A stretch of DNA of 64,000 nt. Source: a virus. The DNA lies in IMG/VR virus record IMGVR_UViG_3300021373_002801, positions 1 through 64,000 of that record; one strand, 5' to 3'. Within the stretch, counting starts at the first letter, position 1. Each line of letters starts with the position of its first letter. The translations under genes were made by a program, and so were the position numbers. The notes beneath the pieces are model-generated. The model ran no database searches. It saw only the letters and a list, made by a program, of their open reading frames with translations, and was not told where the DNA came from. Shown in pieces: positions 4,501 to 60,895 of the stretch.

Positions 4501-4508
4501 AATAAATA
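4501..4508 (+). promoter_or_regulatory. Late promoter core (AATAAATA)
   Basis: Intergenic, upstream of SD AGGAG and a TTG start. Confidence 0.6.
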
Positions 4509-4527
4509 CTGTGTCAGGAGAATAAAT

Positions 4528-7500
4528 TTGGCACAAGTAGGTAGAATATCCGGTCCGCTATTACAGGACAATCTTTTAAGAAATGGTTTAGATCTTGCTT
4601 TTCGCAATGATTCTGGAACCACACAACTTCTTTATCTTGATGTCAATACTGGCAAAGTAGGCATTAATAAAAACGCTCCTATTGTAGAACTAAACATTGA
4701 AGGCGATGCACGTAGCACTAATTGGAATACTACTGCACTTACAAGTTTGACCGGCTACGAAATAAGTAACAACAACATTAATGTACGTTCTGGAAATATT
4801 AATTTAAATGCAGGCACAGCAATTAGATTAAGTAATCTAGAAACAGAAGCATTTCAAGCTACAGACAATACAATTAGCACACATATTTCTAATGCAAATA
4901 TTGATTTACGTCCTTGGCAAGAATATGAATTAGATACAAGCGACCCTTTCATTGCAGATCTAAATGATACACTTTTACAAGTTTCAAGGGGTCAAATAGG
5001 CCCTGGCAATGCAGACTACGAGTTTTGGACTACAGTTTTACCGAGTGGGTTTCAAAGAGGTGATTGGAACGAAAGCGGCTCAATTAGCATTGACGATGTT
5101 CTTGGATTTCTTAATTTCACAAGAGGAAATGTTAGCCCACCAAGTGCTGCATATGATCGTGGAATAGCAATAATAAATGCGAAATTACCTACTGTAGAAA
5201 GTTTAGCTAATACTAATGTCTCAGGAAATATACATGCAACTGGTAACATAACTACTGACGGAAATATAATATTTGGAGATCAAAATACTGATAGTATTAT
5301 CTTAAACGCAGAAGTTACATCTAGTATTATTCCTGCTGCTAACAACACGTATGCGTTAGGCGCACCAACAAAACGCTGGGACTATCTTTATAGCACACTT
5401 ATAAATGGAACTAATGTTGTTACTGGTAATTTTAATGTAAGCGGAATAGATCCATTAAGTCTTAGACAGGGGAACATATTTTGGGTTGCACAAAACGGTG
5501 ATGACAACAATGTAGGAGATCATCCTAACGGTCCTTTCAAAACACTTAAACATGCTCTTGATGTTGTTGATGCAAGCACACAAGGACCTGTTACAATACA
5601 TGTAATGCCTGGCGGATATGAAGAAGAACTTCCTTTGGTTGTGCCTAGTAATGTAACTATCAAAGGTGAAGATTTTAGAAATACAATTATACGTCCTACT
5701 AGTGCTGATCAATCAAAAGATGTTTTCCACCTAAACGGTGAAACTACAATAACGAATATTACTATAAAAGATTTTTATTATGACAGCGGCAATGACACAG
5801 GTTATGCATTTAGATTTGCGCCCGGCGCAGTAATAAGCACACGCTCTCCTTATATACAAAATGTAACAGTAATCACTCAAGGTACTACAACAAGTCCAAG
5901 TGATCCGAGAGGATTTGCAAGTGGTGATGCAGGCAAAGGCGCACTTATTGACGGAGCATCAGTGCCTAGTGCAAGTAATGAAGCAAGTATGCTTTTCCAT
6001 TCAGCAACATTTATTACACCAGGTGTTGATGCAATTACAATGACAAACGGTGTGCGTGTAGAGTGGCTGAATAGTTTTACCTACTTTGCAAACAGAGGAT
6101 TGTATGCAAAAAACGGAGCAACAGGACATCTAAGCACAGACGGATCAACTGTACAATATGGTGCTGAAATTCGTTCAATTGGTTCAGCTAGTGTCTACGG
6201 AAACAAAGGCGCAGAAGCAGACGGCAACGATTGTATCATGTATCTTATTGCACATAACTTTGCTTACATAGGTGCAGGTAAATTTGTAGATAATGATCCT
6301 AGTAGAGCCATACAAGCAAATGAAACAATAGAATTAAATAGCGGTAAAATTTATCATGTATCACAAGATCACGGCGGCGATTTCAGAATTGGTGATCAAT
6401 TCTTTGTTGATTTTGAAACTGGTACAACTAGTTTAAATCTTACAGCTGCACAAGTAGACAGTTTACAAACTTTGAATATTACTGACAGCAACGGCACAAC
6501 AATAGTAACACCAGCACTAATTGATATTGGTAATTTTAGAATATCAAACAATAACATTGATACACTATTTGGTGCAATGAATATAGATGCGGCTACAGAA
6601 ATTAAATTTAATAATGATGTAAACTTTAAAAAGAATTTAAGTCTAACTGGTAATATTAGTGTAGGTAGAGAACTTATAACATTTGGCGATACATTTGGAC
6701 AAGATACTATTGATATAAACGCTGATATTTCAAGTGATGTAGTGCCTGATATAAGCGGATATTATAATCTTGGAAGTAGTTCATATAAATGGAAACAAGG
6801 ATATTTTTCAGAAGCAAATATTGCTGACATAAAATTTAAAGACACAACAGTTACAACAACTATTTCAAATAGCAATCTAGAATTACAGGCCAACGGTGCT
6901 GGCGAAATATATCTACCAGATGCTGATTTAGAAATAACAAATGCCGCAACAGTAACAGGGTCAACAACTTTAAAAGATACAAATATTACAGGAAATGTTG
7001 TACTAGCAGGTAATTATAGTATTACAGATAATTTTAATCTAACGGGTAACTTGACTGTACAACAAAATTTTAGTGCAGTGCAAGCAACACTAGAAAAAGT
7101 CAATATCAAAAATAATGTTATAGAAACTTATTCAGGAAATGACAATTTAGATATCAGAGCAAGTGGCACAGGAAATATACTGTTTGACGAAAGTGTGATT
7201 ATAAACCAAAATCTTACAGTATCAGGAACAACTAGTGCTGTGGATTTATCTCTTGCAAGTGTGACAGCCGATCTCGCTACAGATGATATAGATATATTTG
7301 ATAATATAATTACCACTACAAATACAAATAGTAACTTAGATCTTAGAAGCACAGGATCAAGTACAGTGCAATTAGAGCAGATACTGTTAGACGGCACAAA
7401 CATAAGTTCTGCAAATAATATAACTTTCGATCCAACAGAAAATTTAATTATTAATACCGACAAGGCACTAAATTTACCTAAAGGAGATATCTCACAGCGT

Positions 7501-8130: not shown

Positions 8131-8138
8131 TATAAATA
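8131..8138 (+). promoter_or_regulatory. Late promoter TATAAATA
   Basis: Exact T4 late consensus, intergenic. Confidence 0.8.
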
Positions 8139-8145
8139 CTATTAA

Positions 8146-8256
8146 CGCTGCAATGGATCGACCAAATCCGTAGCGGGACAAACTGTGGTTAGCCAGCAAA
8201 GAGCATTAGCTGAAAATTAGGCTTGTGGGACAGGATCCCCGTGTTAAGGAGTAGAG
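8146..8256 (+). ncRNA. Conserved structured 5' leader, copy 1
   Basis: 8176-8256 aligns without gaps to 54342-54422 (68/81 identical by hand count). Stems AGCC/GGCT, AGC-N4-GCT and GGGA/TCCC. Confidence 0.65.
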
Positions 8257-11200
8257 ATGGCAGTTGGTCGCATATCCGGTCCGCTCTTAAAGGCAAATCT
8301 CATTAGAAATGGGATTGATTTAGCTTTTGAGACAGACCTATTATACTTAGATGTTAACAACCAGCGTGTTGGTATCAAAAATAGTTCTCCTCAGCACGAG
8401 TTAGATGTTACAGGAACATCTAGAGTAAATAATCTTACAGTTACAAATCAAGCAACATTAGGCGATGTAGTAGTGCAAGGAAATACTATTTCATCCAATC
8501 AAACCTATTTGAATTTAGGTACACTAGACAATGTTGTTTATCAAAATAAATTAATAATAGATTCTTTAGAGCTAGAAGGTAATGCAATTAGCACGAGAGA
8601 TTCTAACGCAAATTTAGAATTAAGACCAAACGGAACTGGTACTGTTGAAGTACTTGCAAATATGAATGTTGCTGGAAGCCTACACGCTACTGGTAATATT
8701 AGTGCAGACGGTGATATCACAATAGGTGATACTAGTTCAGATACAATTAATTTCAATGCAGAAGTTGCAAGCAATATTGTTCCAGATTCAACAAACACAT
8801 ATCAATTAGGGACAGATCCTGCAGGCGGCGGCAAACAATGGTCTGATATTTGGGTTAATAATTTTAATGCAACATCAGTTTCTGCAACTGCATTAACAGT
8901 TAACGGCATAGATTTAATATTAAAACAAGGCAATATAATTTATGTTGCAGAAAACGGCAACGACACAAACGACGGTGATCATCCTCAAGCACCTTATGCA
9001 ACTATACAAAAAGCATTAAGCGTAGCAACCGGCGGAGACACTGTGCATGTTTATCCTGGAGAATATACAGAAGTGTTTCCTTTGACTGTACCTGTAGGAG
9101 TTACTGTAAAAGGACACAGTATTAGAAGTGTAAATATTTCTCCAACAACTGCTACAAGATACAATGATGCTTTCTTATTGAACGGCGAAAGCACTGTTGA
9201 AGATTTAACTGTAAAAGATTTTTATAGTGGCGGTAACTATTTTACAACCACAAGCTCACTTCCTGGAGGCATAATAGTAAATGTAGGAACAACTGCTCAA
9301 GCACACACATATGTAAGCGGTGGAACAGTAACAGCAGGTGGTACTACTTATACTGTTACCGCACCTACCAACTATAATGAAGCTACAGGTGATTTAGCTA
9401 TTTTCTTTACGCCTGCTGTAGATTTAGGTATAGGCACAGAGGTATTTGTTTCTAACCTAACATTTAGTTGTAATGGAGACAATAGGATATTTCCAGACAA
9501 CGGATATGCATTCCGTTTTGCAACAGATTTTGCAGTTACTACTCGTTCACCTTACATAAGAAACATCACAGTAATCACAGCAGGTTCAACAACTACAGCA
9601 GATGATCCTAGAGGATTTTTATCAGGTGATGCTGGTAAAGGTGCTTATGTAGACGGAGCATATGCTACAGCTGCATCAAGAGAAGCAGCAATGTTGTTCC
9701 ACAGTGTAACTTTTATTACTCCGGGTGTTGATGGACTTGTCGCAACCAACGGTGCTAGAATTGAATGGTTAAACTGTTTTACGTATTTTGCAAACAGAGG
9801 CCTTCATGCGTTTGACAGCAATGCAGGATTAGCATACGACGGAAAAACAAGAATAAGACTTAGTGGAATAACAGGAACTTTTGTTTCTGGTAACACCGTT
9901 ACGTTTACTTCTACAGATGCATCCAGTGTTGTAAATGTTACAGTAGAAAGTGTCGACAATGATATACTTGTCCTAGATGGAAAAAATACTGATTTATTAA
10001 ATTTTGACACTACACCAGCTAGTATATCAAACGGTGGTGGAGCAACTGCAACAACAATTGAAAATGTAGATATTAGAGATTTTGGTGCAGAAGTAAGAAT
10101 GATTGGATCAGCTAATGTTTACGGTAACTATGGTTTGTATGGCGACGGCGAAGGGGTATTAGTTTATGCAATAGGACAAAACTTAGCATACATAGGTAAT
10201 GGTAAAGAAGTTACAAACGATACCGGTAGTGTTGTACAAGCAAACGAAGTTGTAGAACTTAATGGCGCACAAATTAGATACAGCTCAGTTGACCACAAAG
10301 GTGATTTTAGAGTTGGTGATTTATTTCATGTTAATCAAGAAAACGGTTCTGTAGACTTTGCTGTATCTTCATTAAACATAACACTTACTGACGGTGTTAC
10401 ATTTACTAACGGTGGTGATACAACATTTATTAATGGTTCTAGAATTGATACCGGAAACATTAGAATAAGCGGTAATACAATCGAAAGCACAGCAGGAGCA
10501 CTTAATTTTGTAAGTGCAACAGACCAAATTAATTTAGAAAATAATGTAAGTGTAACTGGTAATATTGATGTTACCGGCGATGTAACAATTGGTGGAAATA
10601 TTACACTCGGCGACAGCGGCGATGATAATTTACAAATTGTTGCAGGAATAGCAAGTGATCTACGTCCTAATGTTACAAGCACCCATAGCTTAGGTACAAG
10701 CACTAACACATGGGCAAACTTGCACGTAGATGAAATGTTTATTGATGATATAATTGTAAACACAAACTATATTACAACAACAAATTCAAATGCAAACTTA
10801 GAACTAAGAGCAAACGGTACCGGCAAAGTTCTAATACCTACAAATGATTTACAAATTGATAATAATATAAAAGTAGACGGCACAGCAACTTTAGCTAATA
10901 CAAGCATTACAGGCACAGTGACATTAGTAGGCGGTCATACACAAACTGGTAATACAGATATCAGCGGTGACGTAACAGTTACTCAAGATTTAACTGTAGG
11001 AGCAGCGGCACAATTTGAAGAAATTAAAATTGATGATAATATTATTACTACAACAAGTAGTAATGCTGATTTAGAACTACGTGCAAACGGTACAGGAAAT
11101 ATATTGATTCCTAATAATAATGTTACAATCAGTAATGACTTACAAATTTTAGGAACTACTAGTTTTGTAGATTTAACATCTACAGGGACTATAACTTCAT

Positions 11201-12060
11201 CACAATTTAGTACAGGTGATATTGTTATTAGAGAAAACTTTATTACTACTACAAATAGTAACAGTAATTTAGAACTAAGAGCCGCAGGTACAGGAAAAAT
11301 TGCAGTTGATGATTTGACATTTGACTCAAGTACTATTGCCAGTTCAGCTGATATTACTCTTACTCCTACTGATGGAGTTGTTACAATTAATGCAACTGGC
11401 GCTATAAATCTACCATCAGGTACAACAGCAGAACGTCCAACACCAGTAGCAGGACAATTTAGGTTCAACAGCGAACTTGCGAGATTTGAAGGATACGATG
11501 GATCAAATTGGATAAAACTAGATGGATTGCAAGATTTAGATGGCAATACAAAAATTACAGCTGAGCTAACTCCGGGAGCTAACGATAACAAAATTAGATT
11601 TTATATCAACGGAAGTATTGTAGCAGATATAGATGCAAGTAGATTTAACACAAATAGAGTAACCGTAGATGACATAGAGATAGACGGTAATCGGATAAGT
11701 AGTATTACTACTAACACAGATTTAAACTTCGTTGCTAATGGCACAGGACAGGTTAAATTTGAAAACTTGGGTGTTACTGATAGCACTATAAAAAATACCG
11801 TAGCTGATGCTGTAACAGTGTTCGAAAATACAGGCGACGGATATGTGAAGTTTGATGGATCTCAAGGTGTAGTGCTACCTGTAGGCGGAAACGCTACTCG
11901 TCCGACAGGAGAAACTGGAATGATAAGGTTTAATACTGATGATTCTAGAGTTGAACTATACGACGGAACAACTTGGGTAAGTGTTGCAGGTGCTAGTGGC
12001 GGTATTTCTTTTGCTCAAGCAGAAGAAATTGCAATAGAGAAAGTATTAATTTTTGGATAG
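8257..12060 (+). CDS. Large fibre/appendage protein (GRISGPLL family, copy B)
   Basis: Paralog of 4528 and 54423; beta-helix domain, five N-x-x-L-E/N-L/F repeats, TAERP motif, C-terminal 'VLIFG'. Confidence 0.8.
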   Translation: MAVGRISGPLLKANLIRNGIDLAFETDLLYLDVNNQRVGIKNSSPQHELDVTGTSRVNNLTVTNQATLGDVVVQGNTISSNQTYLNLGTLDNVVYQNKLIIDSLELEGNAISTRDSNANLELRPNGTGTVEVLANMNVAGSLHATGNISADGDITIGDTSSDTINFNAEVASNIVPDSTNTYQLGTDPAGGGKQWSDIWVNNFNATSVSATALTVNGIDLILKQGNIIYVAENGNDTNDGDHPQAPYATIQKALSVATGGDTVHVYPGEYTEVFPLTVPVGVTVKGHSIRSVNISPTTATRYNDAFLLNGESTVEDLTVKDFYSGGNYFTTTSSLPGGIIVNVGTTAQAHTYVSGGTVTAGGTTYTVTAPTNYNEATGDLAIFFTPAVDLGIGTEVFVSNLTFSCNGDNRIFPDNGYAFRFATDFAVTTRSPYIRNITVITAGSTTTADDPRGFLSGDAGKGAYVDGAYATAASREAAMLFHSVTFITPGVDGLVATNGARIEWLNCFTYFANRGLHAFDSNAGLAYDGKTRIRLSGITGTFVSGNTVTFTSTDASSVVNVTVESVDNDILVLDGKNTDLLNFDTTPASISNGGGATATTIENVDIRDFGAEVRMIGSANVYGNYGLYGDGEGVLVYAIGQNLAYIGNGKEVTNDTGSVVQANEVVELNGAQIRYSSVDHKGDFRVGDLFHVNQENGSVDFAVSSLNITLTDGVTFTNGGDTTFINGSRIDTGNIRISGNTIESTAGALNFVSATDQINLENNVSVTGNIDVTGDVTIGGNITLGDSGDDNLQIVAGIASDLRPNVTSTHSLGTSTNTWANLHVDEMFIDDIIVNTNYITTTNSNANLELRANGTGKVLIPTNDLQIDNNIKVDGTATLANTSITGTVTLVGGHTQTGNTDISGDVTVTQDLTVGAAAQFEEIKIDDNIITTTSSNADLELRANGTGNILIPNNNVTISNDLQILGTTSFVDLTSTGTITSSQFSTGDIVIRENFITTTNSNSNLELRAAGTGKIAVDDLTFDSSTIASSADITLTPTDGVVTINATGAINLPSGTTAERPTPVAGQFRFNSELARFEGYDGSNWIKLDGLQDLDGNTKITAELTPGANDNKIRFYINGSIVADIDASRFNTNRVTVDDIEIDGNRISSITTNTDLNFVANGTGQVKFENLGVTDSTIKNTVADAVTVFENTGDGYVKFDGSQGVVLPVGGNATRPTGETGMIRFNTDDSRVELYDGTTWVSVAGASGGISFAQAEEIAIEKVLIFG

Positions 12061-12064
12061 ATAA

Positions 12065-12394
12065 ATGGCAACAATATTAAAAAATACAGTAATAAAAAAT
12101 TGTGGGACAGTGCCTGTTTTAATTTATGAAACATTGCCTACTACAAGAGTAACAATTTTAGGTTTAAGTTTTACTAACCTAACAGATCAATTTATCTATT
12201 GCGATGTATTAATTAAAGACGACACAAGTGTAACAGGATATTATTTAAAAGACAGCATATTACCAGCAGGAACAAGTTTACGTGCAGTAAGTACAGGTGA
12301 AAAATTAGTTTTAGCACCTAGCAATCAATTACTTGTTAGATCAAGTGTAGATGATTCAGTTGATGTAATAGTTAGCTACGTGGAGATTACATAA
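12065..12394 (+). CDS. Small structural protein (~108-aa family, copy 2)
   Basis: Close paralog of 60192..60521. Confidence 0.75.
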   Translation: MATILKNTVIKNCGTVPVLIYETLPTTRVTILGLSFTNLTDQFIYCDVLIKDDTSVTGYYLKDSILPAGTSLRAVSTGEKLVLAPSNQLLVRSSVDDSVDVIVSYVEIT

Positions 12395-12840
12395 TGACAT
12401 ATTATATAGGAACAAGCCCAACTGATGTTATTGATAGTTTTATAAAACGTTATTTTTACGGAATACGTAGGAACGAAGACGGTGAATTATTTTTAATGAA
12501 ATCAGATCAGTTAGCAGGAGGCGATGAAAATATTGTAGTTGTTAATAATATTGGTATAGCTGAAGAAAACTATTTAGATTTTGAAGAAGGTATCGATTTT
12601 CTAAGCGGTATAGATGAAAATCATGACAAACTTTATGATAATGTACGATATCCTCAATTTAAATGGGACAGTAGATCATTAACATATTTTGTAGATCCTG
12701 TAGACGGACAGTTTATTCAAAGATTGTCACAGGCATATGTATATCCGGATGCAATAAGTAGTCCATCTTACAGCGACGGTGACGATAATTCAGTTTTAAC
12801 AGACCCAACAAGTTATAACCCAGACGGACAAGGATACTAA
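12394..12840 (+). CDS. Hypothetical virion protein
   Basis: Close paralog of 60521..60895 (YFYG.RRN.DGELFL, DFEEGIDFL). Confidence 0.75.
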   Translation: MTYYIGTSPTDVIDSFIKRYFYGIRRNEDGELFLMKSDQLAGGDENIVVVNNIGIAEENYLDFEEGIDFLSGIDENHDKLYDNVRYPQFKWDSRSLTYFVDPVDGQFIQRLSQAYVYPDAISSPSYSDGDDNSVLTDPTSYNPDGQGY

Positions 12841-18428: not shown

Positions 18429-18436
18429 GATAAATA
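18429..18436 (+). promoter_or_regulatory. Late promoter core (GATAAATA)
   Basis: Intergenic, upstream of SD GGAG. Confidence 0.6.
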
Positions 18437-50349: not shown

Positions 50350-53300
50350 ATGGAAAAAGAATACACAGTAGTTGTACATAAAGGTGTAAATTTAGTAGAA
50401 TTAGAATCTGAAATTACAGCAAGTTCAGGTGCCGGACCTATTCCAAATAGGAGTGTCGATATAGCTAATCCAAGACCTGGATCAAAAAGACAAACACATT
50501 TTATGCTTACAGACGAAGAAGCAACTGCTCTTGAAGCGGATAGTAGGGTGCTTGCTGTTGAAATTCCTCCCGACCAACGAACAGATATCCAAATAGGATT
50601 AAATTCAACACAATTAGGTAATTTTACAAAACCTGTAACATTTGATAATAACACTTATATTAATTGGGGGTTGCGTAGAAGTATAATGGAACTTAATAGT
50701 TACGGAAGCGGAATAACAGCAGATAATACATTTCCTTATGCACTCACAGGTAAGGGCGTAGACATAGTTATTCAAGATAGCGGTATACAACCAGACCATC
50801 CTGATTTTATAGATAGCAATGGCATTAGCAGAGTCAAACCAATAGACTGGTATACAGCACAATCAGTTGTAAGTGGGACACAGAGTTCAAATTATAATAG
50901 AGATTTTGACGGACACGGAACTTTGTGTGCAAGTATTACAGCAGGAAATATATACGGATTTGCTAAAGATGCACATCTATACTCTATGAAAATTGCAGGT
51001 TTAGAAGGTCCTGGAGATGCAGGATCAGGAACTCCTGTAGCCGATTGTTTTGATGTTATAAAAGAATGGCATAATGCTAAAACAAATGGCCGTCCAACTG
51101 TTGTTAATATGAGTTGGGGATATTCTAGCTCAGTAACTGGTGACCCAACAAGCGGAACATACCAAGGATCACCTTGGGTATGGGGAGTTGACTACACAAC
51201 TGATCTTTCTTTATGGCAAAATACTGGTATTGTTATTCCTGTAGCAGGAGATACTCGTAGAATACCTGTAAGAATAGCATCAGTAGATGCAGATGTCGAC
51301 GAATTGATTGCAGCCGGAGTACATGTTGCGATTGCTGCCGGAAATGATTATTACAAAGGCGATGTATCGGGCGGTGATGATTATGATAACACTGTAATAT
51401 TTGGTGCTAGTACTTTATTTTATGCTAGAGGTTCTAGTCCACACAGTGATGATTGTTTTATGGTTGGAAATATAGATACTACTGTGTTTGATGAAAACGG
51501 AGTATACAAAGACAGAACTAGAGGTAGTAGTTCTAAAGGTCCTAGAGTAAATATTTGGGCACCTGGAACCAACATTGTAGGAGCAACAAGCACTACAAAT
51601 ATTTACACAACCCTAGATAGTCCAATAGATGATACATTTAAAATTGTTAGCAATTCAGGTACAAGTTTTGCTGCACCACAAGTAGCAGGAGTAGCTGCAC
51701 TTCATTTACAAGTAAATGCAAACAGCACACCAGCACAACTAAAAACAAAATTATTAGCCGAAGCTAAACCAGTAATGTACGATACTGCATCAGACACAGA
51801 TTATGCTGCTTTTACTACAAGTTTATTAGGGGCATCAAACAAAGTGTTATTCGACAAGTACGGTAGACAGCCTGTAGAAGTAAACGGAGCAAATCTTAAA
51901 TTAGAGGGAATTTTTCCTAACTATACTTCAGCTGCACCTGCAATAGATCCAGAATATAACAACGGTGCAATTATTGATCTTACTGGCGATGGTAGCGATT
52001 TCTTTAGTAGAGAAGTTACAGTTAATGGTGTAAGAATTGTGGCGGCAGGAACTGTCGGCGGCCAAACAGCAGTGCCTGATGCCTTTGTTGAAAAGGTAGC
52101 ACGTATGTTTGAATTGTTTACAGATCCAAATGGTGCAGGCATTAACGAAACATCACAGCGTACATTTATTAAAACGCTAAGTGGTGACGCAGGAACTTAT
52201 CACGCAGCAGTTGGCCCAACGTTACAACGAGTAGCAAGAGGTGCTGGTGCTGATTACACACCAAACTTCTTAACTGATGCAGGTATTGCTTCTTATAACT
52301 TGTCACCACTATTTGATAGTCACGTTGCCAACGATATGGTTTGGTATCTAAACTCAACTGGTGATGCCCCTGGAGACGGCGACAATGATGCACAAGAAGT
52401 AATTGAACACGTATTTCATACATTACATATGCACGGTCTTGACGCAGTATCATTAAAGATGTATCCATATATTAGTGCAGACTGGGCAAGTGGTCCATTA
52501 TATGCGGCTATGGAAGAAGCATACGATGCAGGCAAATGGGATTCATCAGGATATGGCGGAAACGCTTGGAAGACTGATGGAGATGCATTTGAAGTAGCAG
52601 CTAAAGAATATTTGTTTTTGTTAAACTTTGGTATGTTTGAATACTCAAGTCTATGGGATGGTGGAAGTCTTAGTCCTGAATGGACAGACGATATGCGTAC
52701 ACAATCCGGCATACAAGCAAATAACCCATTAGGCTATGCATTACACAATACATATATTGCTCCTGTTATTAGTAAGCCTTCGTTGACAACAATTAGAACT
52801 ATATTCCAAGACGGTGACGTAGGCGATCCTACACTAGCAGGTGCATCAGGATATGTAGTAGACACAGGTGCAAGTAATGTTGTTGTTCAAGAAAATACAA
52901 CATTAGAACAAAATCTAACAGTAAACGGTAATACTAATTTACAAGGTACTACAATTAATGGTACACTAACGCACAGTGGCAATCGTGTACAAACAGGCAA
53001 TGTTGCACTAACAGGTTCACTAACAGCAGGACTACTAACGCTTTCAAGACCTCTACAGGTTGGTGATATTAAAATTAGTGGAAATGTAGTTGAAACTGTG
53101 GTTTCTAATTCTAATTTAGATTTACGTGCAAGCGGCACTGGATTAGTTAAATTACAAGAAGCAGTAGATATACAAAATGATCTAAGTGTGCGTAATTTTA
53201 ATGTTGACAGTATATCTGTTGCCAACAGTGTTGACTTAGAAATAATTGAACTTAGTACTGATGTACAATTTGAAGATAACACTATTACTACTACAAATTC

Positions 53301-54261
53301 TAACAGTAATCTAGAACTTAGGGCTGCTGGTACTGGAAGCGTTTACTTACAAAATATAGAAATAACACAAGACAGTATTAGCACTAGGACACCAATTGAC
53401 AGTACAGCATCTAGTATTACACTAGCACCAACAGAAAATTTAATAGTTAATTCAACTGCGTCACTACAAGTTCCAAGAGGCACTACACTACAACGAGTTG
53501 TTTCTCAAGATACATTCTTAGATGGCGGGGCAGCAATAAACAGCGCAAGTATACTAGACGGTGGTAATGCTTCTACAGTATTTGGTGCAAGTGATACCAT
53601 TTACAATTCAGGTGGCGCAGTACTAACTACATCTGGAAACATAGGCGATATTAGATTTAATACCAGCGATAGCGTATTTGAAGCTACTGGAGCAACTAGT
53701 ACAATCTCACTAGGCGGAGTTTACTCAGCAGATAGACAAACTAGTATTACTGCTGATCCTACATCAAATACTATTAGATTTATTGTTAACGGTTCGTCAA
53801 ATCCACTAGATAGTTCAAGTTTAGTAGGGGAAGTTACAGGCGAAGGTCTTACAATACACGGGTTACAAACTGATGATATACTATTAGATAACAATGTTAT
53901 TAGCACAACAGTTTCTAATTCAAATTTAGATTTAGCAGCAAACGGTACTGGAAAATTAGTATTAGACGATTTGTCATTTAACAGTAACTTTATACAAGAT
54001 AATGGCAATAATCTTATAGTTAAACATACTAATTTTGGTCACGCAAAAATATCAGGAACTTATGGTGTTGTAGTTCCAAACGGAACTACTGTAGTGCCGT
54101 CACCTGCGCCACAGCTCGGTGATACTAGATGGAACACTACTTCTAACTTGTTAGAGACTTGGGACGGTGCAACTTATGTAACTTCCGCAGGTGTTGCCGC
54201 AGCAATTACGGCTGAAGAATTTGATGATCTCCTCTTAGAATTCACTCTAATATTTGGGTAA
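50350..54261 (+). CDS. Subtilase (S8) / putative metal-binding domain / fibre fusion protein
   Basis: Catalytic triad VIQDSG (D 50776), GHGT (H 50914), SGTSFAAPQVAG (S 51664); central EHVFHTLH; C-terminal third homologous to the 4528 C-terminus. Confidence 0.85.
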   Translation: MEKEYTVVVHKGVNLVELESEITASSGAGPIPNRSVDIANPRPGSKRQTHFMLTDEEATALEADSRVLAVEIPPDQRTDIQIGLNSTQLGNFTKPVTFDNNTYINWGLRRSIMELNSYGSGITADNTFPYALTGKGVDIVIQDSGIQPDHPDFIDSNGISRVKPIDWYTAQSVVSGTQSSNYNRDFDGHGTLCASITAGNIYGFAKDAHLYSMKIAGLEGPGDAGSGTPVADCFDVIKEWHNAKTNGRPTVVNMSWGYSSSVTGDPTSGTYQGSPWVWGVDYTTDLSLWQNTGIVIPVAGDTRRIPVRIASVDADVDELIAAGVHVAIAAGNDYYKGDVSGGDDYDNTVIFGASTLFYARGSSPHSDDCFMVGNIDTTVFDENGVYKDRTRGSSSKGPRVNIWAPGTNIVGATSTTNIYTTLDSPIDDTFKIVSNSGTSFAAPQVAGVAALHLQVNANSTPAQLKTKLLAEAKPVMYDTASDTDYAAFTTSLLGASNKVLFDKYGRQPVEVNGANLKLEGIFPNYTSAAPAIDPEYNNGAIIDLTGDGSDFFSREVTVNGVRIVAAGTVGGQTAVPDAFVEKVARMFELFTDPNGAGINETSQRTFIKTLSGDAGTYHAAVGPTLQRVARGAGADYTPNFLTDAGIASYNLSPLFDSHVANDMVWYLNSTGDAPGDGDNDAQEVIEHVFHTLHMHGLDAVSLKMYPYISADWASGPLYAAMEEAYDAGKWDSSGYGGNAWKTDGDAFEVAAKEYLFLLNFGMFEYSSLWDGGSLSPEWTDDMRTQSGIQANNPLGYALHNTYIAPVISKPSLTTIRTIFQDGDVGDPTLAGASGYVVDTGASNVVVQENTTLEQNLTVNGNTNLQGTTINGTLTHSGNRVQTGNVALTGSLTAGLLTLSRPLQVGDIKISGNVVETVVSNSNLDLRASGTGLVKLQEAVDIQNDLSVRNFNVDSISVANSVDLEIIELSTDVQFEDNTITTTNSNSNLELRAAGTGSVYLQNIEITQDSISTRTPIDSTASSITLAPTENLIVNSTASLQVPRGTTLQRVVSQDTFLDGGAAINSASILDGGNASTVFGASDTIYNSGGAVLTTSGNIGDIRFNTSDSVFEATGATSTISLGGVYSADRQTSITADPTSNTIRFIVNGSSNPLDSSSLVGEVTGEGLTIHGLQTDDILLDNNVISTTVSNSNLDLAANGTGKLVLDDLSFNSNFIQDNGNNLIVKHTNFGHAKISGTYGVVVPNGTTVVPSPAPQLGDTRWNTTSNLLETWDGATYVTSAGVAAAITAEEFDDLLLEFTLIFG

Positions 54262-54283: not shown

Positions 54284-54291
54284 GATAAATA
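54284..54291 (+). promoter_or_regulatory. Late promoter core (GATAAATA)
   Basis: Followed by CTATTAA, exactly as at 8131. Confidence 0.75.
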
Positions 54292-54298
54292 CTATTAA

Positions 54299-54422
54299 TG
54301 CAACGCAGACCAGTATCATTCTATGTTTGATATGCTGAGCAGGACGAACTGTGGTTATCCGGCAAAGAGCGCAAGCTGAAAATTTGGGTAGAGGGACAGG
54401 ATCCCCGTATTGAGGAGTACAG
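54299..54422 (+). ncRNA. Conserved structured 5' leader, copy 2
   Basis: Homologous to 8146-8256; TATCCG/TGGGTA stem, AGC-GCAA-GCT GNRA hairpin, GGGA/TCCC. Confidence 0.65.
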
Positions 54423-57400
54423 ATGAGCGCACTTGGTCGTATTAGCGGTCCGCTCTTAAAGTCAAATCTTATCCGTAATGGAATAGATCTGGCGTTTGAG
54501 ACAGATCTGCTGTATTTAGATGTAAACAACCAGCGAATTGGTGTTAAAACCACGAATCCTCAATACGAGTTAGATGTCACAGGTACAACACGTACAACAA
54601 ATTTAATAGTAACTAATAGAGCAGATATTGGAGATGTAAATATCCAAAATAACACCATCTGGAGTGATGGTCAATATCTTAACTTAGGTACTTTGGATAA
54701 CGTTATATACCAAAATAAATTACGTGTAGATGATATTGATATTGAAGGCAATGTTATCAGCACAAACACTTCTAATAGCAATTTAGAACTTCGTCCTAAC
54801 GGCACTGGTACTGTAGAAGTACTATCAGATATGAATGTGTCCGGAAACATCCACGCAACTGGAAATATAAGTGCGGACGGCAATATTACACTAGGTGATG
54901 CCGATACTGATAACGTAACTTTTAATGCTGAAATTGCTAGTAATATTATTCCAGATCAAGATAGAACATATTCACTTGGTACAGCTGGAACAGAATATGC
55001 ATCAGGAACCGATTATACAATTGGCGATGCTACAATAGTAATATCAAGTGGAACTGGAACACTAAGTGTTCCGGCTGCTGGCGTTGCTTGGATTGACGAT
55101 GTTACGTCTGAAACAACAGGATATTATTATCTAATAACAATAGAAGCACAAATTGGTACTAGGTATGCTGCAACTACTACAGCAAATTGGACAGGGTCAA
55201 ACCCGCAAACAGTTACAGTTAATATTCCCGGCGCACCAGACGGAACATACAATGTAGTACAAATAAACAAAGATGCTAAACGTTGGGATGATATTTGGGT
55301 TAAGAACATTAGAACTGACGGTATTAATACTGGAACTATTGTTGTTGACGGAATCAACTTAACACTGCGTCAAGGAAATATTTATTACGTTAGTGAAAAT
55401 GGTGACGACACTAACTACGGTGATCACCCCCAAGACCCATTTGCATCATTATCATATGCACTAAGTGTTGCAGCAATAGATATAGGAAACGGAGAACTTC
55501 CTCCTACTATTCATATTACTCCGGGTGTGTACACAGAAACATTTCCATTAACAGTTCCAGCAGGAGTTACAGTTAAAGGTGAAAATTTAAGAAGTGTAAA
55601 AATTGTACCTACAACTGAAACACGATACAACGATGCATTTTTGTTAAATGGTGAAACTACTGTAGAAGATGTCACAGTTGCAGATTTTTATAGTGGCGGA
55701 GTATTTACTAACGCACTTAGCGGCGGAATAGGCGACACACTAGTTAATGTTGGAACAGCACCATTTGCTCACACATATGTAAGCGGTGGAACAATTGAAA
55801 TTGCCGGCACAGAATATAATATTTCTAATGCAATATACATACACCAAAACGGAATACTAGAAATATTCCACTCAGGACCTGGTGCAACTATTGGCGATCC
55901 AGTTTTTATTAAAGGTCTCGTATTTAGTTGCAACGGCGGCACAAGAACATTCCCTGACAACGGATATGCTTTCCGCTTTGCAACAGATTTTCAAGTAACA
56001 AGTCGTAGTCCATACATTAAAAATGTATCTGTAATTACAAAAGGTAGTACTGTTACAGCAGATGATCCTAGAGGATTTTTATCAGGAGACGCTGGTAAAG
56101 GGGCATATGTTGATGGAGCATATGCAACAGCAGCATCACGAGAAGCAGCAATGCTATTCCATAGTGCAACATTTATTACACCAGGTGTCGATGCATTAAC
56201 AGCAACCAACGGTGCTAGAATAGAATGGTTAAACTCGTTTACATATTTTGCTAATAGAGGACTATATGCATTTGATAGTAACGATGGGTTAAAAGGCGCT
56301 GGTAAGACACGTATTAGATTAAGTGGACTTTCAGGAACTGCACCAGCAGCAAGTCAAACAGTAACATTTACATCAACCGACAGTTCAACTGTAGTTGGAC
56401 CTTTAACAATTGAAAGTGTTGAAGGTGGTGACATTCTTATAGTTGATGGTAAAGATACAGACCTAATAGGCTTTGATACAACGCCGGCTAGTATTACATT
56501 TAGTGGCGGCGGAACTGCTACAAAAATCGAAAATGTTGACGTAAAAGACTTCGGTGCTGAAATACGTATGATCGGTAGTGCCAGTGTTTACGGTAACTTT
56601 GGACTAGTAGGCGACGGAGAAGGTGTACTAGTATATGCTATTGGACATAACCTAGCATACATTGGTAATGGTAAAGAAGTTACTAACGAACCTAGTTCAG
56701 TTATACAAGCAAATGAAGTTGTAGAAACAAATGGAGCTCAAATACGTTTTAACTCAGTTGACCACAAAGGCGATTTTAGAGTTGGTGACTTATTTTATGT
56801 TAACCAAGAAACTGGTAGTGCAGCATTTAGTGTAAGTGACTTTATTATTAATACTAGTAACGGAGTCTCATTTAATACCGGAAGCGATACTACATTTGTT
56901 GACGGTACAAAAGTCGAAACAGGCGATTGGAGATTCAGTGGCAACACTGTTGAAACACTAACACAAGATGCTAATTTTGCAGCGGCAAGCGGTACAATTA
57001 ATTTACAAGATAATACAAATATTACAGGTGACTTAGATGTTACAGGTAATGTAACTATCGGCGGCAACATTACTATAGGTGATGAAGCAACTGATACTAT
57101 ACAATTTGTAGCAGGAATAGATAGTGACATTGTTCCAAGATTAGATAGCACATACAGTTTGGGTACTGCATCAAAAACTTGGAGTAACTTATATGCTAAT
57201 CAAGTTAACGTAGATGACATACAAATTCGTGACAACTATATCACAACTACTGTTTCAAACAGTGATTTAGAATTACGTGCAAGCGGAACTGGCGAAGTAC
57301 GTGTACCCAGCAACGATGTACAAATTGACAACGATCTAACTGTTGACGGAACTGTAACCCTTGCTAATACAAGTATCACAGGTACACTAACACTAACTGG

Positions 57401-60188
57401 TGATTTTAATCAAACAGGAAATTACACACTTACAGAAGATTTAACAGTTGGACAAAATCTAACTGTTGGTGCAGCAGCGCAATTTGAAGAAATATTAATC
57501 GATGATAACTTTATTACTACAACTACCTCAAACACAGACTTAGAGTTACGTGCTAATGGAACAGGTGAAATACTTGTACCAAACAACGATGTAAACATTA
57601 CCAACGACTTAGCAGTCACAGGCGATATTAGTGCTAACAACCTAACAGTCACAGCAAACATAACCAGCACAGATGCAAACATCGGCGATGTGCAAATTAG
57701 CGGAACAACCGTTGAAGCAACTGCTACAAACGCAGACCTAGAACTACGTGCAAACGGTACAGGTATTATTAGCATACCGTCAAATGATGTTACTCTAGGA
57801 CAAGCACTTACAGTAAGTGGTGCTACAGACTTACAAGATCTAACTGTTACTGGTACACTAACACACACCGGTGATACAACACAGACTGGTAATTATACAA
57901 TTACTGGACAGTTTAGTAATGGCGATATCCAAATAGATGCTAATACAATTGAAACTACACTTTCAAATAGTAACCTAGAACTACGTGCAAATGGCAGCGG
58001 CGTTATCAGCGTACCAACCAACAATGTTACAATTACAAACAACTTAGATGTAGATGGTATTACTAACCTAGACGATACAAATATCGACGGCACACTAACA
58101 CACGTTGGTGACACTACACAAACTGGCAACTACACAATTACTGGACAGTTTAGCAATGGCGATATTCAAATAGATGCCAACACAATTGAAACTACTGTTT
58201 CGGATAGTGATTTAGAGTTACGTGCTAATGGCAGTGGTACAATAAATGTACCTAGCAACGATGTTACATTCAGCCAAGCACTTACAGTAAGTGGTGCTAC
58301 AGATTTACAGGATACAAATATTACTGGTACAGTTACACACGTTGGTGATACTGTTCAGACTGGTAACTTTACTATTGGCGGCGAAATATCAAATGGTAAT
58401 ATACTGATTGAAGATAATTTTATTGCTACCACTGCTTCAAACGCAGACCTAGAACTACGTGCAGCAGGAACAGGTGAAGTATTAATACCAAACAATGATG
58501 TTAGAATTACTAATAACTTGTTTGTTAACGGTGATGCTACACTAGGTGATACAACACTTACAGGTAATGTTAATATCACAGGTGATATCACACAAACTGG
58601 TGATTACTCAATCACTAGCGATTTATCAGTAGGCGGCAACTTAACTGTAACACGTTCTGCACAGTTTGAAGAAATACTAATTGATGATAATTTTATCACA
58701 ACAACTACGTCAAACACAGATTTAGAATTACGTGCTAATGGAACTGGCGATGTTCTTATTCCAAATAATGATTTACATATTACTAATGATTTAGCAGTAG
58801 ACGGAACAATTACTGTAGGTGATATTAATAGTGCAGGTACTATTACTGCTAATAGATTTAGTACCGGCGATATACTAATTGATGATAATTTTATTACAAC
58901 AACCACAAGCAACAGTGACTTAGAACTACGTGCTAATGGCACAGGTGATGTTGTAGTTCCAAGTAACGATGTTACACTAGAACAGGATCTAACAGTTAAC
59001 GGAGATACTGATTTAGAAGATACTTCTGTTACTGGAACAATCACACACGTTGGCGACACTACACAAACTGGTGATTATGATCTAACTGGAAATCTAACTG
59101 TTTCAGGAGATGTAAACAGCAATGGCGTACAACTTGAAAATATACAACTTGTTGGAAATGTACTAACTACTACACTTTCAAACTCGGATTTAGAACTACG
59201 TGCTAACGGAACTGGCAGTATTGTTATTCCAAACAATAATGTTGAAATCACAGGCGATCTAACAGTTAATGGCACACTAACTGTAACAGACATTGACAGC
59301 ATTGGACAAATTGCTGCTAATACTTTTCATACCGGCGATATACTTGTAGATGACAATTTTATTACTACAACAAACTCAAACAGTGACTTAGAGTTACGTA
59401 CATCTGGTACCGGAAGCATTGTAATCGATGACTTTACTTTCCAAAGCAGCACAATTAGTTCAACTGGTGATATAACACTTAGCCCAAGTAGCGAAGCAGT
59501 TATTATTGATGCTACAGGATCACTCAAATTACCGTCCGGTAACACAAGCCAACGTCCAACAGGAGTAGCGGGTCAAATTAGATATAACTCAGAGCTTGCT
59601 AGATTTGAAGGATATAACAGTTCTAATTGGATTAATCTAAAAGGTGTAGAAGACTTAGACGGTGATACTAAGGTTACAGCTGAATTAACTGAAGGTGCAA
59701 ATGACGATAAAATTAGATTTTATAATGCAGGAGTACTAACTGTAGACATTGATGCAAATAGATTAAATGCACCAAAAGTAGTCGTAGATGACATTACCAT
59801 TGACGGTAATTTGATAAGTACAACTACAAATAATACTGATTTAGAATTAACTGCAAATGGTAGTGGTTCTGTTAAGTTTGATAACTTTGCATTTAAAGAT
59901 AACACTATTACTAACACTGTTTCTGATAGTGTAACAACTTTTGAAGCAACTGACAATGGTTATGTAAAGTTTGATGGAACATATGGTTTAGTTATACCAG
60001 CAGGTGGAAACGCACAACGTCCACCGTTAGCAAATACTGAATTAGGACAGCTACGTTGGAATACAGATGCAGCAAGAACAGAAATATATGATGGAACAAA
60101 CTGGGTAAGTGTAGCAGGTTCAAGTGCAGGTATATCAAGAGCAGACGCAGAAAACATTGCATTTGAGATTGTATTGAGTTTAGGATAA
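54423..60188 (+). CDS. Large fibre/appendage protein (GRISGPLL family, copy C, repeat-expanded)
   Basis: Close paralog of 8257 with twelve LELR/LELT-type repeats. Confidence 0.8.
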   Translation: MSALGRISGPLLKSNLIRNGIDLAFETDLLYLDVNNQRIGVKTTNPQYELDVTGTTRTTNLIVTNRADIGDVNIQNNTIWSDGQYLNLGTLDNVIYQNKLRVDDIDIEGNVISTNTSNSNLELRPNGTGTVEVLSDMNVSGNIHATGNISADGNITLGDADTDNVTFNAEIASNIIPDQDRTYSLGTAGTEYASGTDYTIGDATIVISSGTGTLSVPAAGVAWIDDVTSETTGYYYLITIEAQIGTRYAATTTANWTGSNPQTVTVNIPGAPDGTYNVVQINKDAKRWDDIWVKNIRTDGINTGTIVVDGINLTLRQGNIYYVSENGDDTNYGDHPQDPFASLSYALSVAAIDIGNGELPPTIHITPGVYTETFPLTVPAGVTVKGENLRSVKIVPTTETRYNDAFLLNGETTVEDVTVADFYSGGVFTNALSGGIGDTLVNVGTAPFAHTYVSGGTIEIAGTEYNISNAIYIHQNGILEIFHSGPGATIGDPVFIKGLVFSCNGGTRTFPDNGYAFRFATDFQVTSRSPYIKNVSVITKGSTVTADDPRGFLSGDAGKGAYVDGAYATAASREAAMLFHSATFITPGVDALTATNGARIEWLNSFTYFANRGLYAFDSNDGLKGAGKTRIRLSGLSGTAPAASQTVTFTSTDSSTVVGPLTIESVEGGDILIVDGKDTDLIGFDTTPASITFSGGGTATKIENVDVKDFGAEIRMIGSASVYGNFGLVGDGEGVLVYAIGHNLAYIGNGKEVTNEPSSVIQANEVVETNGAQIRFNSVDHKGDFRVGDLFYVNQETGSAAFSVSDFIINTSNGVSFNTGSDTTFVDGTKVETGDWRFSGNTVETLTQDANFAAASGTINLQDNTNITGDLDVTGNVTIGGNITIGDEATDTIQFVAGIDSDIVPRLDSTYSLGTASKTWSNLYANQVNVDDIQIRDNYITTTVSNSDLELRASGTGEVRVPSNDVQIDNDLTVDGTVTLANTSITGTLTLTGDFNQTGNYTLTEDLTVGQNLTVGAAAQFEEILIDDNFITTTTSNTDLELRANGTGEILVPNNDVNITNDLAVTGDISANNLTVTANITSTDANIGDVQISGTTVEATATNADLELRANGTGIISIPSNDVTLGQALTVSGATDLQDLTVTGTLTHTGDTTQTGNYTITGQFSNGDIQIDANTIETTLSNSNLELRANGSGVISVPTNNVTITNNLDVDGITNLDDTNIDGTLTHVGDTTQTGNYTITGQFSNGDIQIDANTIETTVSDSDLELRANGSGTINVPSNDVTFSQALTVSGATDLQDTNITGTVTHVGDTVQTGNFTIGGEISNGNILIEDNFIATTASNADLELRAAGTGEVLIPNNDVRITNNLFVNGDATLGDTTLTGNVNITGDITQTGDYSITSDLSVGGNLTVTRSAQFEEILIDDNFITTTTSNTDLELRANGTGDVLIPNNDLHITNDLAVDGTITVGDINSAGTITANRFSTGDILIDDNFITTTTSNSDLELRANGTGDVVVPSNDVTLEQDLTVNGDTDLEDTSVTGTITHVGDTTQTGDYDLTGNLTVSGDVNSNGVQLENIQLVGNVLTTTLSNSDLELRANGTGSIVIPNNNVEITGDLTVNGTLTVTDIDSIGQIAANTFHTGDILVDDNFITTTNSNSDLELRTSGTGSIVIDDFTFQSSTISSTGDITLSPSSEAVIIDATGSLKLPSGNTSQRPTGVAGQIRYNSELARFEGYNSSNWINLKGVEDLDGDTKVTAELTEGANDDKIRFYNAGVLTVDIDANRLNAPKVVVDDITIDGNLISTTTNNTDLELTANGSGSVKFDNFAFKDNTITNTVSDSVTTFEATDNGYVKFDGTYGLVIPAGGNAQRPPLANTELGQLRWNTDAARTEIYDGTNWVSVAGSSAGISRADAENIAFEIVLSLG
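57200..59420 (+). repeat. Intragenic tandem repeats (~60-90 aa units, 'NSDLELRANGTG')
   Basis: Ten recurrences of the LELR motif; near-identical DNA blocks about 240 bp apart near 57880 and 58120. Confidence 0.8.
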
Positions 60189-60191
60189 GAT

Positions 60192-60521
60192 ATGGCAACA
60201 TTATTTAAAAATAAAGTAGTAAACAACATAGGAGTAGTACCTGTTGATGTATACGAAACTGATGCGAGCACTCGTGCAACAGTAATTGGTATGAGTTTAA
60301 CAAATCTAACACAAAGTTTTGTATACGTAGATGTACTAATGCAAGACGATACTAGTGTAACAGGGTATTACTTAAAAGAAACATTGCTTCCGGCAAATAC
60401 TAGTTTGCGAGTTGTAGCTACAGGTGAAAAATTAATTATAGCACCAAGTAATAAATTACAAGTGCGTTCGAGCATTGACGACAGTGTTGATGTTGTGTTA
60501 AGTTTTGTGGAGATTGTATAA
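60192..60521 (+). CDS. Small structural protein (~108-aa family, copy 4)
   Basis: Close paralog of 12065. Confidence 0.75.
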   Translation: MATLFKNKVVNNIGVVPVDVYETDASTRATVIGMSLTNLTQSFVYVDVLMQDDTSVTGYYLKETLLPANTSLRVVATGEKLIIAPSNKLQVRSSIDDSVDVVLSFVEIV

Positions 60522-60895
60522 TGAGTCATTATATAGGTAATAGTCCAGAATCAATTGTTCAAGGATTTATTAAACAATATTTTTATGGTATGCGTAGAAA
60601 CGACGATGGTGAATTGTTCTTAGTTAGACAAGATCAGTTAAGCGGTCAAGGTACTGTAACTGTAAATGATATCGGAATTGGCGCAAACAACTATCCTGAC
60701 TTTGAAGAAGGCATTGACTTTCTTGAAGGTATAGATGCAGATCATAACATAGTCTATGAAAATTTACGTTACCAACAAATTAAATGGGATGGTAGATTGT
60801 TAACATATTACATCGATCCAACTGACGGACAATTTATTGTAAGAATATCAGAAGATTATCAATACCCTGAGAATATCTCAGGACCGGGGTACTAA
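60521..60895 (+). CDS. Hypothetical virion protein
   Basis: Close paralog of 12394. Confidence 0.75.
   Translation: MSHYIGNSPESIVQGFIKQYFYGMRRNDDGELFLVRQDQLSGQGTVTVNDIGIGANNYPDFEEGIDFLEGIDADHNIVYENLRYQQIKWDGRLLTYYIDPTDGQFIVRISEDYQYPENISGPGY

Follow-up and report, generated by a model that had tools for sequence, protein, structure and literature searches.

Two giant fibre/baseplate genes in a 64-kb stretch of phage DNA (positions 1 to 64 000 of IMG/VR virus record IMGVR_UViG_3300021373_002801; hereafter the window) are each preceded by a structured leader that belongs to an uncatalogued RNA family, carried by uncultured jumbo phages of aquatic habitats. The family is of a known general kind, the pseudoknotted translational leader, but has an unusual double-pseudoknot ring. 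Its predicted fold is supported by covariation, with compensatory changes in four helices among more than 180 versions from many samples. We lean, with little better than even confidence, towards a leader that uses its double pseudoknot as a cis-acting throttle on translation of one fibre paralogue.

In the mechanism that we propose, each copy would be the 5′ untranslated leader of a late mRNA, ∼115–130 nt from the predicted transcript start to the AUG. The RNA would begin with a hairpin, P0, followed by a helix S1 stacked on a helix P1 as an H-type pseudoknot, in which L1 has 2 nt and L3, a long loop, may or may not contain a hairpin P2, and then by hairpin P3 ahead of the Shine–Dalgarno (SD) sequence. 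The P0 loop (NGACCA) would pair with UGGUCG in codons 3–5, placing the SD and the AUG in a closed RNA ring bounded by P3 and by the helix at +8 to +13. Initiation would require that helix, which lies within the 30S footprint, to melt, and the leader would therefore probably throttle or tune initiation in cis, setting the output of the leader-bearing fibre/baseplate paralogue relative to an adjacent leaderless paralogue with the same N-terminal domain; P0 might incidentally shield the mRNA 5′ end. A throttle fits the fixed spacing of the element to the ribosome-binding site (RBS) and first codons, its absence from one member of a pair of neighbouring paralogues with a common N-terminal domain, and the 25–34 nt leaders of the other intergenic late promoters in the window. 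The elements of both copies, as predicted, and the leaderless paralogue lie as follows.

8131–8138, + strand: late promoter of copy A, T4-type box TATAAATA, invariant in the 130-sequence alignment A2
8148–8176, + strand: 5′-terminal hairpin P0 of copy A, with the loop CGACCAA at 8159–8165 (fold −10.9 kcal/mol)
Within 8184–8198, + strand: S1 5′ strand UGU (8184–8186) and L1 GG (8187–8188) of copy A, from covariation in 90 representatives
Within 8184–8198, + strand: P1 5′ strand UUAGCCA (8189–8195) and S1 3′ strand GCA (8196–8198) of copy A, from covariation
8202–8211, + strand: P2 of copy A, optional hairpin in the pseudoknot loop L3, AGC-AUUA-GCU, from the family P2 counts
8218–8225, + strand: P1 3′ strand U(A)GGCUUG of copy A, with A8219 bulged, from covariation
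8227–8239, + strand: P3 hairpin GGGA-CAGGA-UCCC of copy A, ending 7 nt 5′ of the SD, from swaps in homologues
8246–8270, + strand: SD AAGGAG (8246–8251), start codon (8257–8259) and UGGUCG in codons 3–5 (8265–8270) of copy A
54284–54291, + strand: late promoter box GATAAATA of copy B
54299–54341, + strand: P0 domain of copy B, with GACCA unpaired at 54308–54312 and then an inserted hairpin at 54314–54332
54350–54364, + strand: S1 5′ strand UGU (54350–54352), L1 GG, P1 5′ strand UUAUCCG (54355–54361) and S1 3′ strand GCA (54362–54364) of copy B
54368–54377, + strand: P2 of copy B, AGC-GCAA-GCU, with a GNRA loop
54384–54391, + strand: P1 3′ strand U(U)GGGUAG of copy B, with U54385 bulged
54393–54405, + strand: P3 hairpin GGGA-CAGGA-UCCC of copy B
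54412–54439, + strand: SD GAGGAG (54412–54417), start codon (54423–54425) and UGGUC (54434–54438) of copy B
4502–4530, + strand: leaderless third paralogue, with the late promoter ATAAATA 26 nt before a TTG start (4528)

The two copies align without gaps from 8176 to 8256 and from 54342 to 54422, with 68 of 81 nt identical (84%). Both sit behind a late promoter box, (T/G)ATAAATACTATTAA, and end in the SD and ATG of a giant open reading frame (ORF), 8257–12060 (1267 aa) behind copy A and 54423–60188 (1921 aa) behind copy B. A first-pass annotation of this DNA by a model had reported this duplicated leader, and the coordinates and differences that it named are all present: AGCC/GGCT in copy A against ATCC/GGGT in copy B, and the loop ATTA against GCAA. 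GGGA-CAGGA-TCCC is unchanged between copies, and the upstream hairpins differ in sequence and both carry GACCA. Third codon positions of the two genes, taken as synonymous sites over the first 100 codons, are only 54–59% identical, a comparison chosen beforehand as a refuting test; the similarity of the leaders thus exceeds what chance or hitch-hiking would leave. A covariance model of the family, R1, finds exactly two copies in the window at 92 bits each, with the next match at 11 bits, and every family element, from the late promoter to UGGUCG or UGGUC at codons 3–5, is present in both.

By analogy with T4 late promoters, transcription of copy A is predicted to start ∼6 nt downstream of the box and 2–4 nt before P0. 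Its P1 contains one mismatch (U8224 opposite U8190), and the duplex between CGACCA (8159–8164) and UGGUCG (8265–8270) is computed at −7.8 kcal/mol; the corresponding duplex of copy B, GACCA (54308–54312) with UGGUC (54434–54438), comes to −6.8 kcal/mol. Forcing GACCA of copy B to be unpaired yields a fold 0.1 kcal/mol above the minimum free energy, and the same inserted-hairpin type of P0 recurs in homologues L106, L129, L131, and L184. Single-sequence folding of the two copies is no better than that of shuffled sequences (z = +0.3 to +0.9), an outcome to be expected of an RNA with pseudoknots. The paralogue at 4528, the third, was rightly described as having no such leader: its start follows the promoter by 26 nt, and it spells Gly-Arg as GGUAGA instead of GGUCG.

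Covariation was assessed in 90 representatives (alignment A4), in which the fold model pairs 91.9% of cells, compared with 81.7% in shuffles (0 of 500 as high) and 24–45% with slid partners. S1, overlooked by the first-pass annotation (UGU 8184–8186 with GCA 8196–8198), joins UGU just 5′ of P1 to GCA just 3′ of the P1 5′ strand in 3 bp that are paired in 100% of the 90. Its column 7.22 reads UA in 79, CG in 6, and AU in 5, with none unpaired, and only these three complementary pairs are seen among the nine combinations that the collecting pattern permitted; column 9.20 reads UG in 86 and CG in 4. P1 comprises 7 bp, with one bulged nucleotide in its 3′ strand, and covaries at columns 19.66 (AU 38, CG 31, GU 13, GC 6), 16.70 (AU 47, GC 25, UG 6), and 13.72 (UA 45, CG 15). 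As predicted from these columns, S1 and P1 form a textbook H-type pseudoknot, with GG as L1, the S1 3′ strand following directly on the P1 5′ strand, and a long L3. P2, within L3, is present in 104 distinct cores and absent from 49, and its loop is GNRA in 61 of 106 cases. P3 ends 5–7 nt before the SD across the family; it changes from GGGA/UCCC to GGCA/UGCC within class I (the classes are described below) and from CCGUG/CACGG to CGGUG/CACCG within class II, UCCG/CGGA is also seen at the same place in homologues, and between classes the helix is replaced whole. The helices initially proposed as AGCC/GGCT (P1), AGC-N4-GCT (P2), and GGGA/TCCC (P3) are therefore borne out by covariation in more than 180 homologues. 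Among the unpaired nucleotides, AAC before S1, GG in L1, A-W-G after S1, and the GACC loop are fixed across classes.

Two additional pairings were rejected. CUGU before P1 could pair with ACAG in the P3 loop, but the ACCGUGG and ACAGUGG variants leave the CAGGA loop as it is; G10–N19, a candidate fourth S1 pair, is paired in only 29 of 88 sequences, and N19 covaries with column 66. No conserved anti-SD or SD-sequestering alternative pairing was found among the homologues, and the SD–AUG spacer is purine- and U-rich. An upstream ORF or leader peptide was likewise rejected: an ATG occurs near the transcript start in only 95 of 183 leaders, and the putative upstream ORFs range from 1 to 53 codons, encode no conserved peptide, and are absent from classes II and III.

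In nearly every member, 2–4 nt separate the predicted transcript start from P0. Each of the 167 distinct 5′ segments folds into a hairpin with 5 bp or more, at a mean z of −2.7 relative to shuffled sequences; 166 contain a GACC-like word, which is unpaired in 158. The loop nearly always contains GACC(A/U), while the stem sequence drifts freely. These values come from single folds; the register of the loop shifts between sequences, and RNAalifold accordingly predicted nothing when given P0 aligned without gaps.

The partner of this loop was originally sought in the conserved TGGTT downstream, as a pseudoknot with GACCA. That assignment failed, since GUCCA loop variants leave UGUGGUC unchanged but match a change from GGUCG to GGACG in codons 4–5. 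Across 257 scorable leader/gene pairs, the joint loop and coding words are GACC/GGUC in 230 and the wobble combination GGCC/GGUC in 16, with compensated pairs in GUCC/GGAC (three leaders: L030 and L118 of class I and L355 of class II) and in UUACC/GGUAG (L136). When loci were fetched by leader words alone, and so without bias for the gene, the glycine codon was GGU in 129 of 131 and the arginine codon CGN in 130 of 131, and all three exceptions were compensated in the loop. The arginine codon is AGA in 76 of 103 leaderless starts as against CGN in 186 of 188 leader-bearing ones. Within the class-I alignment alone, the four core loop–coding pairs can form in 124–127 of 129 sequences. A second, long-range pseudoknot between the GACC loop and UGGUCG in codons 3–5 is thus well supported by codon and loop words, if less richly than S1 and P1. 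The other pairing proposed at first, AGC(N)GGAC with GTCCGCT in the early coding region, did not survive comparison, its 5′ segment not being conserved (homologues read GGGUCAA, GGUCCAA, AUAUUCA, and others).

Exact-word scans of IMG/VR with two leader words returned at least 119 contigs or so for each, and a scan anchored only in coding sequence (TNGGTCGNATNNNNGGNCCNCT) returned further loci, so that the counts are lower bounds. More than 180 distinct leaders were collected from IMG/VR contigs, all of them preceded by a T4-type late promoter and followed by a MAxGRISGPL fibre/baseplate gene. In the coding-anchored scan, nearly all listed MAxGRISGPL starts with a CGN arginine carry the leader, and of 61 distinct starts orthologous to that at 4528, 57 have a short leader only. 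Searched against 712 kb of flanking phage DNA, R1 gave 54 matches, one per locus and all at fibre-gene starts; five contigs of 210–358 kb, one of them rated complete, hold one copy each, and the window holds two.

The family falls into three classes with a common core and different P3 helices: GGGA-CAGGA-UCCC in class I, which includes both window copies; CCGUG-AAA-CACGG and relatives in class II; and, in class III, ACAGCG with a different P1, plus UCCGUGUAAGUCGGU. Class II and III leaders (L286–L365, e.g. L295:9407–9474 and L301:7074–7141) keep P0, S1, and P1 beside their different P3 (CCGUG-AAA-CACGG; UCCGUGUAAGUCGGU), and in some of them L3 holds two hairpins. Metagenomes from salt marsh and seawater contain near-identical DNA. 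Among cultured phages, class I and class II leaders had no blastn match in GenBank, and tblastn with the N-terminus of the gene gave weak partial matches only. Coverage of the gene in metatranscriptome runs X15–X18 is thin, and transcript starts are not visible in such contigs. One X15 contig joins 8227–8293 to 36 nt of a relative's short-type leader (GTGGTCAACCCGCAATGCAAGGTGGTTGGA), which is consistent with the leader lying within an RNA, yet DNA carry-over is possible, and the contig neither proves transcription nor gives a 5′ end.

Of the structured cis-acting leader first proposed for the fibre cassettes, the structure and the specificity for fibre genes stand, and the regulation itself we infer. 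Several observations weigh against the throttle or limit its support. The putative function of the leader and its predicted 5′ end are read from sequence, and the direction of the effect, repression and not enhancement, is judged only from the position of the loop–coding helix. In class I this helix shows few double changes (two pairs, 7 cells), so its support comes from a few lineages and from codon choice. Nested partition-function folding gives a median SD unpaired probability of 0.5, neither notably open nor closed. In four loci (L035:6627–6692, L256:1437–1503, L260, and L265), the late promoter abuts the pseudoknot, and P0 with its GACC loop is missing, while the gene still reads GGUCG; the ring is therefore dispensable in some members. 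Finally, an exact 16-mer of the P3 region occurs in 110 of the 119 listed pattern-1 matches, a freeze that a purely structural throttle leaves unexplained and that hints at a bound factor.

With P3 and the junction nucleotides nearly frozen within a class, and P0 lost in some members, a bound protein is a serious rival or addition to a purely structural throttle. A trans-acting phage protein, such as unassembled fibre/baseplate protein or an assembly factor, might bind the pseudoknot/P3 core and either stabilize the closed state or keep the 30S subunit out; expression would then be coupled to assembly by a feedback like that of T4 gp32 or Escherichia coli S15 or L20. The unpaired nucleotides fixed across classes agree with such an operator, as does a P3 that is near-invariant within a class and swapped between classes, the pattern expected of RNA–protein co-evolution, set against a P0 stem that drifts. 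The class-specific P3 could, however, be mere lineage, and no RNA-binding candidate emerges: the cassettes' small ORFs, of 109, 148, and 124 aa, have matches only among PHROGs of unassigned function and none in Pfam. We regard the operator as a minority possibility. Of similar, tentative standing is a gated switch, in which a metabolite, an ion, or an assembly-state protein acting on the pseudoknot/P3 core would decide whether the P0 loop clamps codons 3–5. A plain small-molecule or ion riboswitch, with the pseudoknot as aptamer and the loop–coding helix as expression platform, is improbable, and we consider a metabolite riboswitch the less likely form of leader. The compact H-type pseudoknot, its fixed junction nucleotides, and the optional GNRA hairpin do resemble pseudoknot aptamers in general, but no Rfam riboswitch model matches even at E ≤ 10. 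No conserved mutually exclusive pairing was found, and the candidate second partner, UGGUY, does not follow mutations of the loop; from sequence, a switch between open and closed states of the loop–coding helix is still conceivable. A single virion structural gene is linked in every case, and never one of metabolism or transport, all 54 R1 matches and all pattern matches standing before the same fibre/baseplate-wedge-like gene. The label 'riboswitch-like' in the first-pass annotation accordingly finds no backing: a ligand is conceivable but nothing points to one, and no conserved alternative pairing with the SD was found.

The throttle has also to be set against readings without translational control. 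P0 and the pseudoknot might serve as a constitutive stabilizer or insulator, guarding the late mRNA from 5′-end-dependent decay by RNase E/J, keeping the RBS context constant, and raising expression. The placement of P0 just behind the predicted transcript start, the purine/U-rich spacer free of a conserved anti-SD, and the position of the leader at the head of multi-kb genes would all suit this role. A 5′ stem alone would suffice for it, however, leaving the fixed GACCA, the compensated pairing with codons 3–5, and the preference for CGN over AGA unexplained, and other late genes of the phage, giant ones included (18455 and 49062), make do with leaders of 25–34 nt; we find it doubtful. Position right behind a promoter, at the head of long genes, could also indicate a processive antitermination element acting in cis on RNA polymerase, like HK022 put or the Bacillus EAR RNA, the latter of which also contains a pseudoknot. 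Such an element would not need fixed spacing to the RBS and first codons, terminator-like sites between 7500 and 27400 occur at chance level (10 versus 10.0 in shuffles), and an internal late promoter lies at 18430, which together make this very improbable. That the leader has no RNA function, and owes its conservation to recent duplication, to gene conversion, or to a site acting in the DNA (a recombination block, for instance), is scarcely credible. The window copies do belong to duplicated cassettes, and the GGATCC within P3 is a DNA palindrome, but the leader is single-copy in most genomes and far more conserved than synonymous sites, and the compensatory changes in its predicted helices exclude pure DNA-level conservation.

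The parent contig measures 76.6 kb and is rated 21% complete by CheckV. Its major capsid protein (467–1639) shares 71% identity with its counterpart in Vibrio phage 2.275.O (349 kb) and 65–69% with those of PA5oct-type and Sinorhizobium Phosso jumbo phages. Taken with the completeness value, these identities point to a genome of ∼350 kb, and they mark the carriers of the leader as uncultured jumbo T4-like myoviruses. Next to the capsid gene, a freshwater-2 RNA (RF02980) at 1744–1821 scores 57 bits against a gathering threshold of 49.9; it follows immediately on a late promoter (ATAAATA, at 1721), precedes an ORF at 1819–2280, and, the two fibre leaders apart, is the one long late leader of the window. 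The other + strand intergenic ATAAATA promoters (4502, 18430, 46476, 46980, and 49034) lie 25–34 nt before start codons, which makes long structured leaders the exception in this phage. With freshwater-2 in the same window, structured late leaders seem to be a habit of this phage lineage. Upstream of copy B, 50350–54261 encodes a 1303-aa protein with a subtilase (Peptidase_S8) domain (E = 3.5e-27), unusual in a tail-gene block. A pair of small ORFs follows each fibre gene, at 12065–12840 (109 and 148 aa) and at 60192–60895 (109 and 124 aa); they match PHROGs 26609/1276 and 8997, to which no function is assigned there, and could be fibre assembly factors or regulators.

If the throttle holds, hundreds of uncultured marine and freshwater jumbo phages would carry a large, cleanly covarying RNA family in which two pseudoknots enclose the RBS, dedicated to one of two paralogous fibre/baseplate genes. 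The family would then be a concrete way into how the stoichiometry of receptor-binding structures is fixed in giant phages. It would also be a compact natural module for translation control, complete with its own compensatory cases (GACC/GGUC and GUCC/GGAC), and would enlarge the RNA family catalogues. Should the leader instead prove to be a gated switch, an accessory fibre (host-range) cassette would be switched by host state, and the leader would be the first sensor RNA known for a virion structural gene.

The first-pass annotation had recognized no known family, and Rfam agrees with it. In a scan of the window with Rfam 15 at gathering thresholds, freshwater-2 is the only family found; up to E = 10, the two copies draw only noise (mir-283, GP_knot2, and sR39, at 10–18 bits against thresholds of 50–94), five class II/III loci have no match at E ≤ 1, and no ribozyme model matches either copy at E ≤ 10. 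By our own reasoning, the helix order P0, S1–P1, P2, P3 is also unlike the topology of the hepatitis delta virus (HDV) or pistol ribozymes. An invariant 14-mer of the leader was not found in the literature text searched, and overlap is possible with candidates that appear only in the tables of Fremin et al. 2023 (PMC10690425). That study describes more than 10 000 candidate phage RNAs, and its text does not mention fibre genes.

Freshwater-2 resembles the fibre leader in being a structured late leader of the same phage with no assigned function, but differs in sequence, fold, and downstream gene (ORF 1819–2280), and R1 scores its site at 9 bits. Like the leader, the preQ1-II, SAM-II/V, fluoride, and guanidine-III aptamers have, within a 5′ untranslated region, a small H-type pseudoknot whose junction nucleotides are fixed. 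They differ in that the SD of the fibre leader lies outside the pseudoknot and its gene is structural, not metabolic, and Rfam gives no match to them.

Also comparable is the leader of T4/T2 gene 32, whose pseudoknot is an autogenous translational operator (also discussed in PMC10690425). Like the fibre leader, it belongs to T4-type phages and places an H-type pseudoknot tens of nucleotides upstream of the RBS, a position from which either would set translation of the gene behind it. The two have no sequence or Rfam similarity. The T4 element precedes the gene of a single-stranded DNA-binding protein, and gp32 coats the unstructured A/U-rich tract behind it, whereas the fibre leader precedes a fibre/baseplate gene (1267 or 1921 aa), follows its pseudoknot with the hairpin P3, and would make a second pairing into codons 3–5. 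In E. coli, the rpmI-rplT (L20) and rpsO (S15) operators are pseudoknots at or reaching the RBS, with known protein ligands. They control translation in a way close to that proposed here, with a loop that pairs with a distant stretch by the start site and an RBS held within the pseudoknot; they belong to bacterial ribosomal-protein mRNAs with no homology to the fibre leader, whose putative partner lies inside the coding sequence, at +8 to +13.

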